This document shows, in pieces, positions 10,388 through 17,296 of a stretch of DNA of 32,000 nt. The stretch is from positions 690,001 through 722,000 of the forward strand of contig NZ_JAGIOS010000003.1 in the NCBI RefSeq assembly GCF_017876815.1. Reading direction: 5' to 3'. The stretch comes from Sinorhizobium meliloti (GTDB taxonomy: Bacteria; Pseudomonadota; Alphaproteobacteria; Rhizobiales; Rhizobiaceae). The stretch's first letter is position 1. The number at the start of each line of letters is the position of its first letter. A model generated the notes under the pieces. That model worked only from the letters and a program-made list of their open reading frames with translations. It was not told the origin of the DNA and searched no databases. The translations under genes and the position numbers were made by a program.

Positions 10388-11617
10388 TCAGTCAGCCGGC
10401 TCTCGCCAGATCGGACAGGTCATGCAATGACCGCCGCCGCGTCCTCGGCCCAATTCGGCGCCGCGGATCGTGATGACCTCGATACCTGCCTTGCGCAGCA
10501 GGGTGTTGGTATACGTGTTCCGATCGTAGGCAACGACAACGCCCGGTTCGAGGGCAACGACATTGTTTCCGTCGTCCCATTGTTCGCGCTCAGCCTCATA
10601 GGCGTTTCCACCGGTGGCGATGGTTCGAAGCTTGTCGATGCCCAATGCTTCGCTGACAACTTCGAGCATGGGTCGGTCTTCCTGCAGCACCTCGAAGTTT
10701 CCCTGGTCGTCGAGCGGGAAAAGGCTGTAACAACGGATCTGATCTACAACGTCGGCGAAGAGCGTCACCACGTCGCGATCGCAGAATGTGAATACCGTGT
10801 CGAGGTGCATCGCCGCCCGGCTCTTCGGCATCAGGCAACCGATGACGCGAGTAGCGGCGCCGGCCTTGAACAACGCCTTGGCAACCTGGCCCACCGCCTG
10901 GTAGGTGGTCCGCTCACCCATTCCCACCAGCAGGATACCGTTGCCGATGGGCATGACGTCGCCGCCTTCCATCGTGGCATTGGCAAACTGCTCGTCGGAG
11001 TCGCCCCACCAAATGTCGAAGGCCGCGCCCTTGAAGGATGGATGAAACTTGTAGACCGCCCTTTGAATCAGGGTTTCCGCGCGCCGTGCCGGCCAGAACA
11101 TTGGGTTGCACGTTACTCCGTTATAGATCCAGCAGGACGGATCGCGCTGAAACAATGTGTTGGGTATCGGAGGGACGACGAACTCGGTGGAGTGGAAGGC
11201 AGATGCCATGAGAGCCTTGCCCTGTCCTTCGGGAAGGTCTGCAATAGAGATCCCACCGATTAGGAAGGCAGCCAGCCGCCTGGAGTCCATTTCCTCCATC
11301 CAAGGACGCATAAGCTCGGCGATCTGGGATCCCATGACGTTCGGGGCGACCCGGCGATCAAGCACGAACTTGCGCGCTTCGGCATCCATGAGGGTGTCGG
11401 TTAGAAGGTCGTGCAACTCAAGGACCTCCACACCTCGTTCCTGCATTTTCAGAACGAAATCGTAATGGTCCTTCTGCGCCTCCTGCACCCAGACGACATC
11501 GTCGAAAAGCAAGTCGTGACAATTACCCGGCGTCAGTCGTTGATGAGCCAAGGAAGGTCTGCAGACCATCACCGTTCTAAGCTTACCGACTTCCGAATAG
11601 ACACCGACAGTACGCAT
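10388..11617 (-). CDS. arcA: Arginine deiminase
   Basis: ORF 10388..11638. [27 protein letters not shown] is the ADI N-terminal signature, and the C-terminal GGGHCMTCP carries the catalytic Cys. Start taken at ATG 11617, 6 nt after AAGGAG. Confidence 0.95.
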
Positions 11618-11801
11618 TGGCATCTCCTTCCGCGACACTCAGACTCGCCTGCGTTGGTCGAAATTCGGCGAAAGTCGGACTGGACGGTCATCCCGGCGCT
11701 TGGGGAAGAGCATTTTGGCCAGAGCCAAACAGTTCTGCAGCCTGTGGATGCCCCCTCAGTATTCGCTGCGGATAGAATAGCTCTTTGCGCAAGCGCCGGC
11801 A

Positions 11802-11815
11802 TTGATCAGGAACAA
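11802..11815 (-). promoter_or_regulatory. Near-consensus FNR/FixK-type box TTGATCAGGAACAA
   Basis: Matches TTGAT-N4-ATCAA at 9 of 10 positions. The centre is about 191 nt upstream of the arcA ATG. It shares the TTGATCAGGA half with the box at 18458. Confidence 0.45.
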
Positions 11816-11910
11816 TTCTCCCGAAAATGTAACTTCGCCGTGCGATCAACTGCTCGCATGCACATTCGCGCCAAAGCAGCCCCAACATTACGGCGGTTTT
11901 TTTGTCGTTC

Positions 11911-11924
11911 TTGACCACGATCAA
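11911..11924. promoter_or_regulatory. FNR/FixK-type anaerobox TTGACCACGATCAA
   Basis: Perfect TTGA-N6-TCAA palindrome. The centre is about 70 nt upstream of ATG 11988 (plus strand) and about 300 nt upstream of arcA (minus strand). It is flanked by the direct repeat TTGTCGTTC (11902-11910 and 11929-11937). Confidence 0.6.
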
Positions 11925-11987
11925 CGACTTGTCGTTCGAGACTAACTAAAAATGGGTTTGCGCCAATTGCAGCGAAGGAATCAGAAA

Positions 11988-12245
11988 ATGAGCACGATTC
12001 CAATCATCCGGGCGATGATGGTAGCCTTCTGTTTATTCCTGGGCGCCGCCGTGCCAGCGGCTGCAGACGAGTATTATGAAGGCATCGACATCAACCAACG
12101 CCAAATCGACGGAAAAAGACAGCCCATTAATACTTACCTACTGAAGCGTAGGGCCGCCGCCCAGAAACCGCCTCCATCAACTACGGGCTCCGTGCCAAAG
12201 CCGGCCCCAGCAGCGCGCGCACCGACAGCCACCGTTCGCCCGTAA
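11988..12245 (+). CDS. Small exported protein, Pro/Ala-rich C-terminus (hypothetical)
   Basis: Inside ORF 11952..12245. The internal ATG 11988 gives MSTIPIIRAMMVAFCLFLGAAVPAAA-DEYYEG, a plausible Sec signal peptide. The FixK-type box is at a suitable distance upstream. Confidence 0.55.
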   Translation: MSTIPIIRAMMVAFCLFLGAAVPAAADEYYEGIDINQRQIDGKRQPINTYLLKRRAAAQKPPPSTTGSVPKPAPAARAPTATVRP

Positions 12246-12465
12246 CCTGGTGCAGATTGCAGAGAGCCCGCCACCGCGGATCAGGTCTGACGCTGCAATC
12301 GCGGACCGGGCTCGCATAGCCCGATGTCTCGCCGCTCCATCTGTCAGGAAAGAAAGATGAGGGGGTGCGCTTCGGCGCGGCGCATTCGAAGCCGAGATCG
12401 CGGCCGTATTGACGTAAGCACGATCTTGATAATCGCGAAAGGCCCGGCCCCTGGGAGGCGGAAAG

Positions 12466-13863
12466 ATGATGAGAGGGACGACCCTTGCACTTGCGGGCGC
12501 AATGACGCTCATGCTGTCGATGCAAGTCAGCGGCTCACTTGCACAAGAACCTACGAAAGCTGCAACCGGTACCGTGTCAACCCCGGAGCCGTTGACTGAC
12601 GACGAACTGGAGGTCCTGGTGGCGCGGATCGCGCTTTACCCGGACGAGTTGGTTGCGCTGATTTCAGCCGTGTCGCTATACCCCTTACAGATCGTTGAGG
12701 CGGAGCGGTTTCTTGAGAACCACAAAAAGAAGCCAGACCTCAAGCCGAAGGAAAGCTGGGATGGCAGCGTAATTTCGCTGCTGAACTATCCCGACGTCGT
12801 CAAGATGATGAGTGACGACCTTGAATGGACGCAGGCCTTCGGTCAGGCAGTCGCCTATCAGCAGAAGGACGTGCTGATTGCGATCCAGCAGTTGCGCGAC
12901 GAAGCGGTAGCCAAGGACATTATCAAGTCGGACGACAAGATGATGTTGGTCCAGGAGGGCGACAACATCATCATCCAGTCGGCGAATCCGGAGACTATCT
13001 ACGTGCCGCAATATCCTCCGGAAATGCTGTACGAGCCGGATTACGCGCCGGTGCCCATCGACTACTATGACACGCCCTATCCCTCCTATTACTACCCAGG
13101 CGCAGCCTTTTTTGCCGGGGCGGTCACCGGCGCGGTCTTCGGCGCTATCGTCGACTGGGACGACTGGGGGGTCTGGGGCGGAGACTGGGGCGGCGACATT
13201 GATGTGGACTGCGACAATTGCTTCAACAACGTCGATATAGACGGCAAGGTCAAGTGGAACGACATCGATTGGAAAAATGTCGACCGCAGCAAGCTGACGT
13301 TCGATCGCGACCAGCTCCAGAAGTTGGACAGGACGAACTTAAAAAACAATATCAAGGCGAACGGCGAAAACAACATCCGCAACCGCGCTACCGAGATCAA
13401 TCGCGATCGGTTAAAGTCGGGACCGGGCGGTGGCGCCAGCCAAATAAAGGACGTGCGCAAGAGCACGCTCGAGGGCCTGAAGGCGCAGCCGAGACGAGAC
13501 GCCGCGGCACGTCCCACCGCAAAGCCCGGCGGCGGACAGGCGGTGGCAAAGGCGAAATCCAGCGGCGCGAAAGCTGGTGTCAACCGCCCCAAGGGCAAGA
13601 AGTCCTCGGCCAATCGGCCAGCAGGCAAGAAGAAGATGGCTTCCAAGGCGCAGAACAGGCCGAAAAAACCGTCCGGGCTGGGCAACGTCAACTCCGGCCG
13701 GCGGGAGGTGTCTGCCTCACGGCGCGGCGGCCACAGCATGGGCGGCGGGCAACGAGGCGGCGGGCGGCCGCAGATGAGTCGCGGCGGCGGCCGGCCGCCG
13801 ATGGGAGGGGCCGGACGTGGTGGTGGACGCGGGGGTGGCGGACGCGGCGGAGGCAGGCGCTGA
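12466..13863 (+). CDS. DUF3300 domain-containing exported protein with an RGG-rich C-terminal tail
   Basis: GGAGG 7 nt upstream of ATG 12466 and a signal peptide MMRGTTLALAGAMTLMLSMQVSGSLAQ. The DUF3300 hallmark is LVARIALYPDELVALISAVSLYPLQIVEAERF. The middle is Tyr/Trp/Asp-rich and includes a hydrophobic stretch AAFFAGAVTGAVFGAIV. The last ~150 aa are basic and low-complexity. Confidence 0.85.
   Translation: MMRGTTLALAGAMTLMLSMQVSGSLAQEPTKAATGTVSTPEPLTDDELEVLVARIALYPDELVALISAVSLYPLQIVEAERFLENHKKKPDLKPKESWDGSVISLLNYPDVVKMMSDDLEWTQAFGQAVAYQQKDVLIAIQQLRDEAVAKDIIKSDDKMMLVQEGDNIIIQSANPETIYVPQYPPEMLYEPDYAPVPIDYYDTPYPSYYYPGAAFFAGAVTGAVFGAIVDWDDWGVWGGDWGGDIDVDCDNCFNNVDIDGKVKWNDIDWKNVDRSKLTFDRDQLQKLDRTNLKNNIKANGENNIRNRATEINRDRLKSGPGGGASQIKDVRKSTLEGLKAQPRRDAAARPTAKPGGGQAVAKAKSSGAKAGVNRPKGKKSSANRPAGKKKMASKAQNRPKKPSGLGNVNSGRREVSASRRGGHSMGGGQRGGGRPQMSRGGGRPPMGGAGRGGGRGGGGRGGGRR
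13720..13860 (+). repeat. GGC/CGG-rich low-complexity coding repeat (RGG/GGR tail)
   Basis: Encodes RRGGHSMGGGQRGGGRPQMSRGGGRPPMGGAGRGGGRGGGGRGGGRR. The same DNA produces long spurious ORFs in other frames (13092..13901 minus, 13218.. plus). Confidence 0.7.
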
Positions 13864-13883
13864 ACGGTTACGGGAGACAGACC

Positions 13884-14834
13884 ATGATCAAGTTCTTGCA
13901 CACACTTCTCCTGGGATCGGCGATCTCACTTGCGCCCGTCGTTGGCCCGATGGACGCATCTCTCGCTCAGACACAGGATTTGGCAGACCTGGACGATTAT
14001 GCTGCCGCGGAAGAGCCCCCGATGTTCGACGACCCGTCGAAGGCGGTGGAAGCATTTAAGTCGGTCCTTGCCGCCAACGACTTCGACGGGCTTGCACGAC
14101 TTCTGGGGCTGAACGCCGCAAAACTGAAGACGGGCGAAGGAGCGATGGAGACCTTCAATCTGGTTCGCGAGGGTGCGGCCCGCAACGTTGTCGTGCGCGA
14201 TCTTGACGGTCGCAAGATCATCGTCATCGGCGACCGGCTCTGGCCACTGCCGTTTCCTATCGTCAAGGACGAGGCCGGCAAATGGGCTTTCGATACCTAT
14301 GTCGGGCTCGAGGAGATCGTCAACCGACGCGTTGGCGAGAACGAATTGGAGGCGATCGAGACGGCGCGCGCCTATATCGAAGCACAGAAGGACTATGTAT
14401 CGCAGGACCGCGATGGGGACGGAGTTTTCGAATACGCACAGAAGCTGATCAGCAGCCCAGGCCAGACGGATGGGCTTTACTGGCCGGCAGATCAGGGGAA
14501 TGGCGAAAGCCCGGTCGGTGAGGCCATCAGCGAGGCGGCGCTAGAGAAGGCAAGGACTGGAGAGGGCTATTTCGGATACCGCTTCCGCGTCCTGACCTCT
14601 CAAGGTGAGAATATCGCCGGCGGCAAGTACGATTACACCATCAACGGCAACATGATCGCCGGCTTCGCGCTGATCACCTGGCCGGTCAAGTATGCCGAAA
14701 CGGGGGTCAAGACCTTCGTTATCAATCAACAGGGCATCGTCTATGAACGAGACCTTGGTCCGAGCACCGAGGAAATCGTGCCATTCATAGATCGTTTCGA
14801 TCCGGATGAAAAATGGAGCGTGGTTACCGACTAG
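13884..14834 (+). CDS. DUF2950 domain-containing exported protein
   Basis: Internal ATG 13884 of ORF 13218..14834 (MIKFLHTLLLGSAISLAPVVGPMDASLAQ, a signal peptide), 20 nt after the DUF3300 stop. The C-terminal pattern GYFGYRFRVLTSQGENIAGGKYDYTINGNMIAGFALITWPVKYAETGVKTFVINQQGIVYERDLG is as I remember the DUF2950 family. Confidence 0.85.
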   Translation: MIKFLHTLLLGSAISLAPVVGPMDASLAQTQDLADLDDYAAAEEPPMFDDPSKAVEAFKSVLAANDFDGLARLLGLNAAKLKTGEGAMETFNLVREGAARNVVVRDLDGRKIIVIGDRLWPLPFPIVKDEAGKWAFDTYVGLEEIVNRRVGENELEAIETARAYIEAQKDYVSQDRDGDGVFEYAQKLISSPGQTDGLYWPADQGNGESPVGEAISEAALEKARTGEGYFGYRFRVLTSQGENIAGGKYDYTINGNMIAGFALITWPVKYAETGVKTFVINQQGIVYERDLGPSTEEIVPFIDRFDPDEKWSVVTD

Positions 14835-15048
14835 ATCACGATGATTTAGATCCATTAAGCATACCGCACATTCAATGAAGCTCGTTGGATCGGCGCCGCG
14901 CTCGCGCTGGAAGACGCACATCTTATTGCCCCCCGGGCAGACGGCAGGCAAGCACGGGTGTCTGGCTCGGCTAGATCCAAGATTTCATACCCGCCATTAG
15001 AAACAGCCTGGCCGTACCGGCACGGCTGAAACAAGGAGGAATAATGTT

Positions 15049-15555
15049 ATGAAGCTAACCCCAAAAACACGGATCGTAGCTGCGACGGCAGTGAGTCTTC
15101 TCTGCAGTGGAACGGTGGTTCAGGCACAGGACATGAAGAAGTACGGCACCGCGGCAGGCTGGGATATCATTGTGAGAGGGGACATGGGCCCCGGCTGCCT
15201 CATCGCGAAGAAGTTGGGTGATGATATGCAGGTTCTGATGGGCATAGACGAGACGACCGGCAGACGCGGCTACATGGCACTCTACACAAAGTTGGCGGCA
15301 AACGTTGGCAGTGGTGAGAAACGCTCCGTAATATTCGACGTTGACGGCCAGAAATTCAGCGGGGAGGCAACCGGTCAGCAGCTGGAGGGATTCGATGGAG
15401 CTTACGTTTGGGTCAACAATCCAGACTTCATCTACGATCTTGCCAAGATGAAGACGCTGACGATCACGCCGGAAGGGCGCAAGCCTTTTGCGCTAAGCCT
15501 TGCCGGAACCGACGCTGCAATGCAGGCCATGCGCGCCTGCCAGGAGGCTAACTAA
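15049..15555 (+). CDS. Exported hypothetical protein (168 aa, two Cys)
   Basis: Strong SD AAGGAGGA upstream of ATG 15049 and a signal peptide MKLTPKTRIVAATAVSLLCSGTVVQAQ. Non-repetitive globular composition; no family assigned with confidence. Confidence 0.8.
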   Translation: MKLTPKTRIVAATAVSLLCSGTVVQAQDMKKYGTAAGWDIIVRGDMGPGCLIAKKLGDDMQVLMGIDETTGRRGYMALYTKLAANVGSGEKRSVIFDVDGQKFSGEATGQQLEGFDGAYVWVNNPDFIYDLAKMKTLTITPEGRKPFALSLAGTDAAMQAMRACQEAN

Positions 15556-15578
15556 GTAGGTATCGCCTGCGCGCACAC

Positions 15579-15592
15579 TTGACTGCGATCAA
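15579..15592. promoter_or_regulatory. FNR/FixK-type anaerobox TTGACTGCGATCAA
   Basis: Perfect TTGA-N6-TCAA palindrome, starting 23 nt after the stop of the 15049..15555 gene. It sits at the start of a 397-bp region with no credible ORF, and its centre is about 367 nt upstream of the antiporter ATG 15953. Confidence 0.5.
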
Positions 15593-15952
15593 TGCGAGAG
15601 GATCCATGGAGTGGCATGCTCTGCACGCGGTAGAGCAATGCATGCGCGCGGTTTGCGCCGTCGCCTGGAGGGGAGCATGGCACCGATACAGGTTGGTCCC
15701 GGCCGTGCGTGTCGGTGTCGAGTGCTCTAAGCGACGTTGACGCAGGCTGTTGCCGCATCGAGCGTTGTCGATCTCAGATACGCTGCTGAATTGGTACCTT
15801 CGTTCACCTTGATCGGCGATCGAAACAGTTAAAGGAGCCGTCTCCAATATCAGATTCCAGTTTCGCCATGCTTCTCCGCGCCACACCGGCAACGCAGGTC
15901 AGCGCTCATCATTACTAACTTCCTGGGGCCCGGCGCTCGAAAGGTTGAGCAA

Positions 15953-17296
15953 ATGTCAGCACCGTCAAGTGGCAAAAGCCTGGGTCTGGCCGCCTGTACC
16001 GCCATCGTCGTCGGTAACATGGTTGGCTCCGGCTTCTACCTCTCGCCGGCGGCAGTTGCTCCCTACGGCAATCTCGCTATCGTGATTTGGATCGTGATGG
16101 GAGCGGGTGCGATCTGTCTCGGGCTGACGTTCGCACGGCTCGCAAAGCTCTCTCCGGCAGTCGGCGGGCCTTATGCATATACGCGCCTTGCCTATGGAGA
16201 CTTTCCGGGCTTTCTTATCGCTTGGGGATATTGGATTTCCATCTGGGCGTCCCTGCCCGTTATCGCCGTGGCGTTCGCCGGCGTGGTCATCGATTTTTTT
16301 CCGTTCCTCCGCGGGCGCGGAACGGCGACGCTGCTCACGTTGGGCGTGATCTGGCTTGTCGTGCTCGTCAACTTACGCGGCGTCCACGCGGCCGGGCTCT
16401 TTTCGGAAATCACCACCTACGCTAAGATGATCCCGTTCGGGGCCGTCGCGCTGCTGGGCCTGTTTTACATCGACTTCTCTCACTTTGCCGACTTCAATCC
16501 AAGCGGCCAGCCGCTCCTTCAGGCGAGCGCTGCGTTGGCGCCGCTTACCATGTTCGCCTATTTGGGGCTTGAATCTGCCACGGTGCCCGCTGGCGATGTG
16601 CGCGACGCCGAACGTACGATCCCGCGTTCAACGGTGCTTGGAATCGCCATTGCTGTAACGCTGTACGTTCTGGGCACCATTGTCGTTATGGGGTTGGTGC
16701 CGAGAGAGGAGCTCGTCCACTCGGTGGCGCCCTTCTCCGAGGCAGCAAGGAGAATGTGGGGACCGGCCGGTGAGCTAGCGATTTCTCTCGCAGTTGTCCT
16801 GTCATCAATCGGAGCGCTGAACGGCTGGACATTGCTGATGGGGCAGGTGCCAATGGCGGCGGCGCGAGACGGATTGTTTCCACCTCTGTTCAGCCGGCTC
16901 TCGGTGCGAAATGTGCCCGCCACGGGGATTGTCGTTTCGGCGACTCTGGCGACGATTCTCGTGCTCGTTCAGGCAGCCGGTTCCGAGGGCTTCTCATCCA
17001 TTTATCGTCTATTCGTCGGCTTAAGCACAATGACCGCCGTTATACCTTATGCGTTCTGCGCTCTTGCCAGCAGTCTCGTCTCCGCACGGGTTAGCGGAGG
17101 GACTGTAATACCGCGTGTAACCCTTATCGAGCTTGTTGGTTTCGCTTTTGCAATTTTCACGCTTTACGGCTGTGGTGCGGAGCCTGTTCTCTACGGGCTA
17201 TTGCTGCTGTTGCTGAGCATCCCCGTTTACATATGGCAGCGACGGCGGAGCTTCGTGCCGGGTGATGATCCTAGCCGGGGCCAGACGCCTGATTGA
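15953..17296 (+). CDS. APC-superfamily basic amino acid/polyamine antiporter (APA family, AdiC/ArcD-like)
   Basis: 447 aa and about 12 TM. Motifs shared with AdiC-type exchangers include VVGNMVGSGFYLSPA, GGPYAYTR, LGLESATVPAGDVRDAERTIPRS and ARDGLFPPLFSR. Confidence 0.9.
   Translation: MSAPSSGKSLGLAACTAIVVGNMVGSGFYLSPAAVAPYGNLAIVIWIVMGAGAICLGLTFARLAKLSPAVGGPYAYTRLAYGDFPGFLIAWGYWISIWASLPVIAVAFAGVVIDFFPFLRGRGTATLLTLGVIWLVVLVNLRGVHAAGLFSEITTYAKMIPFGAVALLGLFYIDFSHFADFNPSGQPLLQASAALAPLTMFAYLGLESATVPAGDVRDAERTIPRSTVLGIAIAVTLYVLGTIVVMGLVPREELVHSVAPFSEAARRMWGPAGELAISLAVVLSSIGALNGWTLLMGQVPMAAARDGLFPPLFSRLSVRNVPATGIVVSATLATILVLVQAAGSEGFSSIYRLFVGLSTMTAVIPYAFCALASSLVSARVSGGTVIPRVTLIELVGFAFAIFTLYGCGAEPVLYGLLLLLLSIPVYIWQRRRSFVPGDDPSRGQTPD

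Follow-up and report, generated by a model that had tools for sequence, protein, structure and literature searches.

A probable two-gene operon on the symbiosis plasmid of Sinorhizobium meliloti, DUF3300-DUF2950, is proposed here to encode two Sec-exported envelope proteins that probably cooperate and may influence the handling of cationic peptides, a reading given a probability of roughly 45%. The pair lies in a window of 32,000 nt (contig NZ_JAGIOS010000003.1, positions 690,001 to 722,000, forward strand), the whole stretch that was analysed and in whose coordinates all features are given. The DUF3300 gene (12466–13863, + strand) encodes 465 aa and the DUF2950 gene (13884–14834, + strand), which starts 20 nt after the DUF3300 stop, encodes 316 aa. 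An earlier note, made from the letters of this DNA alone, had described a run of four exported proteins around this pair: an 85-aa protein (11988–12245, + strand), the two DUF proteins, and a 168-aa protein (15049–15555, + strand). Matching of coordinates to strain 1021 assigns the DUF3300, DUF2950, and 168-aa genes to SMa0690, SMa0689, and SMa0687, respectively. All four genes are on the same strand and each product begins with a signal peptide, as had been claimed, with one hydrophobic peak and an AxA-type cleavage site in each: AAA|D (85-aa protein), SLA|Q (DUF3300), SLA|Q (DUF2950), and VQA|Q (168-aa protein). These calls are based on hydropathy and inspection rather than on a dedicated predictor.

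Pfam hidden Markov models uphold both domain assignments far above their cut-offs. DUF3300 (PF11737) matches residues 45–254 with an E-value of 1.2e-44 and 152.9 bits against a cut-off of 25, and DUF2950 (PF11453) matches residues 47–314 with an E-value of 1.3e-101 and 339.8 bits against a cut-off of 20.2. A sample of 80 genome loci encoding DUF2950 relatives, mostly from Rhizobiales, was searched with all four proteins. In every locus that could be read (78 of 78), the gene immediately upstream of DUF2950 is DUF3300, the remaining two of the 80 being cut by contig ends, so the statement in the earlier note that the two families are recurrent neighbours is borne out. This order is kept in remote DUF2950 relatives of 35–41% identity (L086, L087–L089, L094), and on one short contig (L091) the open reading frame (ORF) upstream of DUF2950 ends in ...GGRR*, a typical DUF3300 terminus. 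By contrast with the pair, the 168-aa gene adjoins it in 0 of the 78 other loci, and only one of these, from another Sinorhizobium, has the 85-aa gene, the other 77 lacking it. Because the pair is kept throughout while these two genes do not generally accompany it, comparison of gene order identifies the DUF3300-DUF2950 pair as the conserved unit. The 85-aa gene is then a leading gene confined to one lineage, and the 168-aa gene a bystander, a neighbour of the pair by descent. A third conserved partner was sought in the flanks of the 78 loci and none was found, the largest flank cluster having seven members.

The suggestion of a single envelope system, made up of the four genes and linked to microoxic or symbiotic life, is therefore narrowed to its central pair. 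In favour of the larger system are the shared strand, the four signal peptides, and the bracketing of the block by FixK-type boxes. In addition, match coordinates place the 85-aa and 168-aa genes ~3 kb apart on plasmids of S. medicae and S. kummerowiae too, so that the block looks conserved there. However, a gene order common to S. medicae and its sister species S. meliloti can be simple inheritance, and it is only in this group that the 168-aa gene adjoins the pair. In Sinorhizobium sp. C101, arcABC, the 85-aa gene, and the pair are present without the 168-aa gene, whose homologues elsewhere occur in unrelated contexts, and in the window a gap of 214 nt separates it from DUF2950. Set beside the locus counts, these observations make a four-gene system improbable.

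The pair itself is under purifying selection. Between the window and strain 1021, the ratio of nonsynonymous to synonymous substitution rates (dN/dS) is 0.09 for the DUF3300 gene, 0.16 for the DUF2950 gene, and 0.15 for the 168-aa gene. For the 85-aa ORF the ratio is uninformative within S. meliloti, with just six differences, while across other Sinorhizobium lineages the protein shows 44–65% amino acid identity with dS saturated. The divergence from strain 1021 is uneven, with a dS of 0.09 for DUF3300 (98% amino acid identity), 0.38 for DUF2950 (89%), and 0.18 for the 168-aa gene. This difference between neighbouring genes suggests recombination within the locus, or conversion from a paralogue. 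Several genomes carry two DUF3300-DUF2950 pairs, and in some strains the second is on pSymA, as in S. meliloti Rm41 (L095, 5642–11963). Downstream of it there lie genes for two unknown membrane proteins (158 and 409 aa) and an MscS-type channel, and on its upstream side are a sulfatase and a histidine kinase/response regulator pair in divergent orientation.

The description of the system as undescribed does not stand, as the pair had already been singled out in a published study. Seshadri et al. 2015 (Sci Rep 5:16825, PMC4653623) reported DUF2950 and DUF3300 as universally co-localised, signal-peptide-bearing families of unassigned function that are enriched in root-nodule bacteria. Two RNA-seq studies on which it drew, one of S. 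fredii NGR234 and the other of S. meliloti SM11, showed both families to be nodule-induced. The families, gene order, signal peptides, and nodule induction are those of the present locus, the SM11 sequence is identical over 11900–15700, and nothing essential differs. The finding is real but mostly known. The present analysis adds a FixK-box promoter and the 85-aa leading gene peculiar to Sinorhizobium, models DUF2950, describes sequence features of DUF3300, and excludes the 168-aa gene from the pair. Taken together, the unbroken adjacency, the 20-nt gap, the published co-localisation and induction, and the purifying selection argue that the pair is a functional unit, and it is most likely that the DUF3300 and DUF2950 proteins work together.

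The DUF3300 protein consists of a signal peptide (residues 1–26), an acidic helical N-domain, a Pro/Tyr-rich linker, a hydrophobic glycine-rich segment, a Trp/Asp-rich stretch holding Cys249 and Cys252, and a basic tail. The hydrophobic segment, PGAAFFAGAVTGAVFGAIV (residues 211–229; 13096–13152, + strand), is glycine-zipper-like with a Kyte-Doolittle 19-residue mean of 1.71. It is kept in an alignment of homologues (A2) and in remote homologues, is less hydrophobic in the Escherichia coli homologue YacH, and may span or associate with the membrane. The tail (residues 331–465; 13456–13860, + strand) is of low complexity and rich in Arg, Gly, Lys, and Pro, with 35 Lys and Arg, 35 Gly, and only three Asp and Glu residues, giving an isoelectric point (pI) of 12.0; it is presumably disordered. 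Its extreme C-terminus, GGGRR(R), is near-universal in the family including remote homologues (window 13840–13860; L086, 6293–7957; L087, 4601–5947; L091, 2–94), and such conservation could reflect a recognition or sorting signal.

YacH (b0117) of E. coli is the only DUF3300 protein with any reported phenotype. It shares a signal peptide and a homologous N-domain with the S. meliloti protein (pairwise E-value 5e-19), and in both the domain is followed by an acidic cluster and a long basic low-complexity C-terminal region. YacH differs in lying between lpd and acnB without a DUF2950 partner, in having no clearly hydrophobic equivalent of the glycine-rich segment, and in carrying four repeats rich in Gln and Arg where the S. 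meliloti protein has its Arg/Gly tail with the GGGRR end. At the position of the S. meliloti Trp/Asp-rich stretch, YacH (L092, 4408–6261) has an Asp/His-rich cluster (DWDDDDHDHHHHDNDDYHHHDGGH). The yacH gene is CpxR-regulated via the envelope-stress system CpxRA and is repressed by protamine and cecropin A (PMC9600279). Protamine resistance rises when yacH is deleted, and likewise on loss of sbmA, the BacA homologue (PMC9600279).

The DUF2950 protein carries a signal peptide (residues 1–28) and is acidic when mature, with a pI of 4.4 against a family median of 4.8. An initial AlphaFold run on 41 close homologues gave a mean predicted local distance difference test (pLDDT) score of 54.6 and was confident just for residues 40–145. 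With 108 diverse sequences aligned, the model reached a pLDDT of 90.6 and a predicted template modelling (pTM) score of 0.83. In this model, the N-lobe (residues ~45–136) is predicted to consist of four helices and four strands. The C-lobe (138–316) would comprise a 35-residue helix (138–172) packed on an antiparallel sheet, with a DRDGDGVFE loop between helix and sheet. A weak Foldseek match may relate the N-lobe to the alpha+beta cone fold of NTF2-like proteins, with E-values of 0.03–0.19 and probabilities of 0.60–0.85 for the structure 3gwr_B. A Foldseek search of the model against a viral library gave no matches, and no second family was found when sub-regions were searched against Pfam with E-values up to 10. 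The best-conserved motifs of the protein are RRIGxNE, DGLYW, GY, and QG, and E154, G197, L198, G231, and Y232 are invariant.

In the model, the long C-lobe helix on an antiparallel sheet recalls type IV pilins and pseudopilins such as ComP and PilX. DUF2950 differs from these in an extra N-terminal lobe ahead of the helix, and the similarity is weak and undetectable by sequence. The N-terminus, MIKFLHTLLLGSAISLAPVVGPMDASLA|QTQD, is of the ordinary Sec type, without the G|F(M)TLxE motif and without the hydrophobic alpha1-N helix. Because of this, DUF2950 is at most a soluble pilin-fold protein, and pilin-like polymerisation is excluded. Prepilin-type N-termini were sought among short DUF2950 representatives, but these proteins proved to be contig-end fragments. 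DUF2950 is also found fused to other domains: C-terminal META in three representatives, a C-terminal MoaF-like domain, and, in one and below the Pfam cut-off, a weakly CusF-like domain (among P0277, P0318, P0356, P0379, P0328, and P0284; loci L093 and L094). In P0284, a DUF3300 N-domain is joined to the C-terminal part of DUF2950 in one protein, with a DUF2092 (LolA-like) gene upstream.

These features bear on whether DUF2950 is instead a secreted or surface pilin-like adhesin and plant-interaction determinant, with DUF3300 as its carrier or anchor. The enrichment of both families in root-nodule bacteria and their nodule induction would fit such a role, as would the pilin-like fold of the C-lobe. 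Furthermore, InterPro records place a prepilin N-terminus with DUF2950 among the 15 commonest architectures of modular pilins (Raynaud et al. 2021, PMC8179133), so DUF2950 does occur behind prepilin N-termini. However, the present protein has an ordinary Sec signal peptide and lacks class III prepilin features, and the fold match is weak. In addition, the family runs to 4,598 clusters at 50% identity, a very large number, and some of its members come from metagenome-assembled genomes without known plant association. An adhesin role is considered unlikely.

The microoxic link proposed for the locus rests on its promoter region. A FixK/FNR-type palindromic box, TTGACCACGATCAA (11911–11924; centre 11917.5), with one mismatch to the consensus TTGAT-N4-ATCAA, lies between the 85-aa gene and the divergent arginine deiminase gene arcA (10388–11638, − strand), which have this intergenic region in common. 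A second box, TTGACTGCGATCAA (15579–15592), follows the block 361 nt upstream of the start of an adiC-like permease gene (15953) and marks the next transcription unit. Both boxes are located precisely where the earlier note placed its anaeroboxes. Across the window, TTGAYN4RTCAA is matched at four positions (11911, 15579, 18458, and 30536), where 0.09 matches would be expected. The four boxes are spread over an island of arc, adiC, and decarboxylase genes, which looks like a single microoxic regulon as judged from these sites.

FNR/FixK class II promoters are exemplified by the ANR-dependent arcDABC promoter of Pseudomonas aeruginosa. The present putative promoter region shares with it the TTGAY-N4-RTCAA palindrome, a −10-like hexamer ~30 nt from its centre, and an adjoining arc operon. 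It differs in that the 11911 box may serve two divergent promoters. Towards the 85-aa gene, the first gene downstream of the box, a −10-like TAAAAAT (11947–11953, + strand) can be read ~31 nt from the box centre in class II geometry. Its placement points to a transcription start near 11959. The 85-aa frame also permits an ATG at 11952, but the ATG at 11988 is favoured since the putative start lies beyond 11952 and an AAGGAA Shine-Dalgarno sequence precedes 11988. On the other strand, a −10-like TAATGT (11885–11890) lies ~30 nt from the box centre. Given the symmetry of these elements, the single box may serve both the arc operon and the 85-aa/DUF3300/DUF2950 unit bidirectionally.

The order FixK box, 85-aa gene, DUF3300, DUF2950 is found in S. 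meliloti, Sinorhizobium sp. C101 (L084), and S. psoraleae (L009), with 56–63 nt between the box and the 85-aa ATG. C101 has a CATAAT/TAATAA element at the place equivalent to TAAAAAT. Where the flank is annotated, in S. meliloti and C101, this unit adjoins arcCBA. Upstream of the pair in the non-meliloti loci, FixK boxes are present in only 4 of 78. Owing to this rarity, microoxic control appears to be a trait of this paralogue and not family-wide. The proposed link to microoxic or symbiotic life is thus retained for this locus, with its FixK-type promoter and published nodule induction, but does not extend to the family.

The promoter arrangement raises the question of whether the pair is an accessory of an arginine/polyamine acid-resistance island (arcABC, adiC, decarboxylases, potE), for instance in sensing or buffering periplasmic polyamines or pH. 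The divergent layout with arcA around one FixK box here and in C101, the box-gene-pair arrangement also seen in S. psoraleae, and the four FixK boxes across the island would be expected of such an accessory. Moreover, the transposon insertion sequencing (Tn-seq) study that flags SMa0690 (PMC7268258) also counts adiC and the arc genes among its symbiosis genes. Elsewhere, however, the neighbours of the pair are heterogeneous, including AI-2E transporters, SulP, an HAD-like exported protein, an FGE-like protein, and two-component systems, and arc genes are not recurrent. Judged by the Pfam matches and by the Foldseek matches of the DUF2950 model, neither protein resembles a polyamine- or arginine-binding fold, and a role within the island is regarded as unlikely.

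A periplasmic module for binding or buffering divalent cations (Ca2+ or a metal) has an equally low probability: the DxDxDG acidic loop of DUF2950 (DRDGDGVFE, residues 175–183; 14406–14432, + strand) may bind Ca2+, DUF3300 has a Trp/Asp-rich acidic cluster where YacH has an Asp/His-rich one, one homologue has a weak CusF-like fusion match, and cation diffusion facilitator (CDF), Ca2+/H+ exchanger, and VIT1 genes are nearby, but the loop is kept in only about two thirds of homologues (D175 in 75, D177 in 72, and D179 in 67 of 108), the strictly invariant residues lie elsewhere (RRIGxNE, DGLYW, GY, QG), and the metal-transporter neighbours are peculiar to this island.

The preferred reading, a cooperating pair of exported envelope proteins, can be set out as a mechanism of decreasing certainty. 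FixK or a related Crp/Fnr regulator would switch on the 85-aa gene, DUF3300, and DUF2950 at low oxygen, and the 11911 box may additionally drive the divergent arc operon. DUF3300 would be held at the membrane through its glycine-rich hydrophobic segment, presenting the acidic helical domain and the long protamine-like Arg/Gly tail. DUF2950 would be a soluble acidic periplasmic protein with NTF2-like and pilin-like lobes and a possible Ca2+ loop, and would bind DUF3300. The charges of the two are opposed, the DUF3300 tail having a pI of 12 and mature DUF2950 one of 4.4. Also in favour of this picture of DUF2950 are its confident model with the ComP and NTF2-like matches, the published prepilin-DUF2950 architecture, and the fusions to small periplasmic domains. 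Most speculatively, the complex could tune envelope charge or permeability and hence the handling of cationic peptides, which in Medicago nodules might be the host nodule-specific cysteine-rich (NCR) peptides. The idea draws on the raised protamine resistance of the YacH deletion and on a Tn-seq hint for SMa0690, which was classed as a symbiosis gene because a run of 40 consecutive insertions was missing from nodules (p2 = 1.8e-4; PMC7268258). The mechanism is plausible, but it is built on weak fold matches and one distant-homologue phenotype.

Several observations weigh against this reading. In the same Tn-seq study, total insertions in SMa0690 were not depleted (19 recovered vs. 14 expected), and SMa0689 scored 0.22, which is not significant (PMC7268258). 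In Datasets EV2 and EV3 of that study, the entries under 'length' stand one row out of step with the locus tags, SMa0690 being given the length of arcA, and the hint is treated with caution for this reason. The phenotype of YacH, which is encoded without a neighbouring DUF2950 gene, may not carry over to the pair. The flanks of the 211–229 segment of DUF3300 are acidic on both sides, a clear positive-inside signal is absent, and the YacH equivalent is polar. The best Protein Data Bank (PDB) matches of the DUF2950 model in Foldseek are the type IV pilin ComP, with an E-value of 0.014 and a probability of 0.96, and the NTF2-like protein, with PilX ranking lower at an E-value of 0.69; all E-values exceed 1e-3. 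The ComP entry was deposited as a maltose-binding protein (MBP) fusion, and since no other MBP entries are among the 50 listed matches, the match appears to concern the pilin part and not MBP. Sequence and profile searches of the PDB with the three larger proteins returned nothing meaningful. The sole DUF3300-DUF2950 fusion found, P0284, is confined to one 3-kb metagenome contig. Lastly, FixK dependence of transcription of the pair was not found in the literature examined. Locus-tag searches found SMa0689 and SMa0690 absent from main texts, and these genes are not listed in the supplements of a polyhydroxybutyrate (PHB)-mutant transcriptome paper.

The two small proteins that flank the pair belong to no Pfam family, and NCBIfam gave no matches for any of the four proteins. 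The 85-aa ORF is missing from the annotated S. meliloti record and is unannotated in most records. Its mature product of ~59 aa has a pI of 10.1, a conserved core YxGIDINQRxIDGxRxPINxYLLKRR, and a Pro-rich tail. Homologues are found almost only in Sinorhizobium, plus one match on a Pararhizobium plasmid, and derivation from DUF3300 was ruled out by BLASTP.

The 168-aa protein belongs to a family of 239 clusters of ~165-aa exported Rhizobiales proteins without a Pfam model and in unrelated contexts, and is a separate small periplasmic protein merely beside the pair. The earlier description of it as a two-Cys protein is correct for the mature form, in which C50 and C164 are invariant across the family; the precursor has three, the third being in the signal peptide. 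The two invariant Cys residues probably form a disulfide. Assignment to the IalB/DUF1176 type was rejected, as DUF1176 matched at an E-value of 0.095 and 12.7 bits against a cut-off of 34.8, and none of 25 family members reached any Pfam threshold.

The region 11900–15700 is 100% identical to pSymA of S. meliloti RU11/001 and to the corresponding SM11 megaplasmid, and ~93.5% identical to pSymA of strain 1021, which places the locus on this symbiosis plasmid. In an annotated S. meliloti record, one flank holds arcC, the ornithine carbamoyltransferase gene arcB, and arcA on the minus strand. The other holds the amino-acid permease gene adiC, a CDF transporter, two decarboxylases, potE, a Ca2+/H+ exchanger, and VIT1. 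The block is thus placed between the arc operon and antiporter/decarboxylase genes, as first described. No RNA families were found by Rfam over 11500–16100, folding of the two ~220-nt intergenic gaps gave no unusual RNA structure (z-scores −0.17 and −1.2), and a terminator scan gave no more matches than chance.

Neither the DUF2950 nor the DUF3300 family has a characterised member except for the YacH mutant phenotype, and a defined function for the pair would fill a gap in envelope biology. In its broadest and rather unlikely form, the pair would be a widespread envelope module in which a pilin-fold protein has turned into the soluble periplasmic partner of a membrane-tethered polycationic protein, and governing how sensitive the bacterium is to cationic peptides of the host. 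On this view, bacteroids would be adapted to the NCR peptides of Medicago by the FixK-driven pSymA copy, together with BacA. The locus is a convenient entry point, as it offers a single, putatively FixK-controlled paralogue on pSymA, well-studied genetics, and a published Tn-seq hint, and the function of the pair might bear on how bacteroids cope with host peptides.

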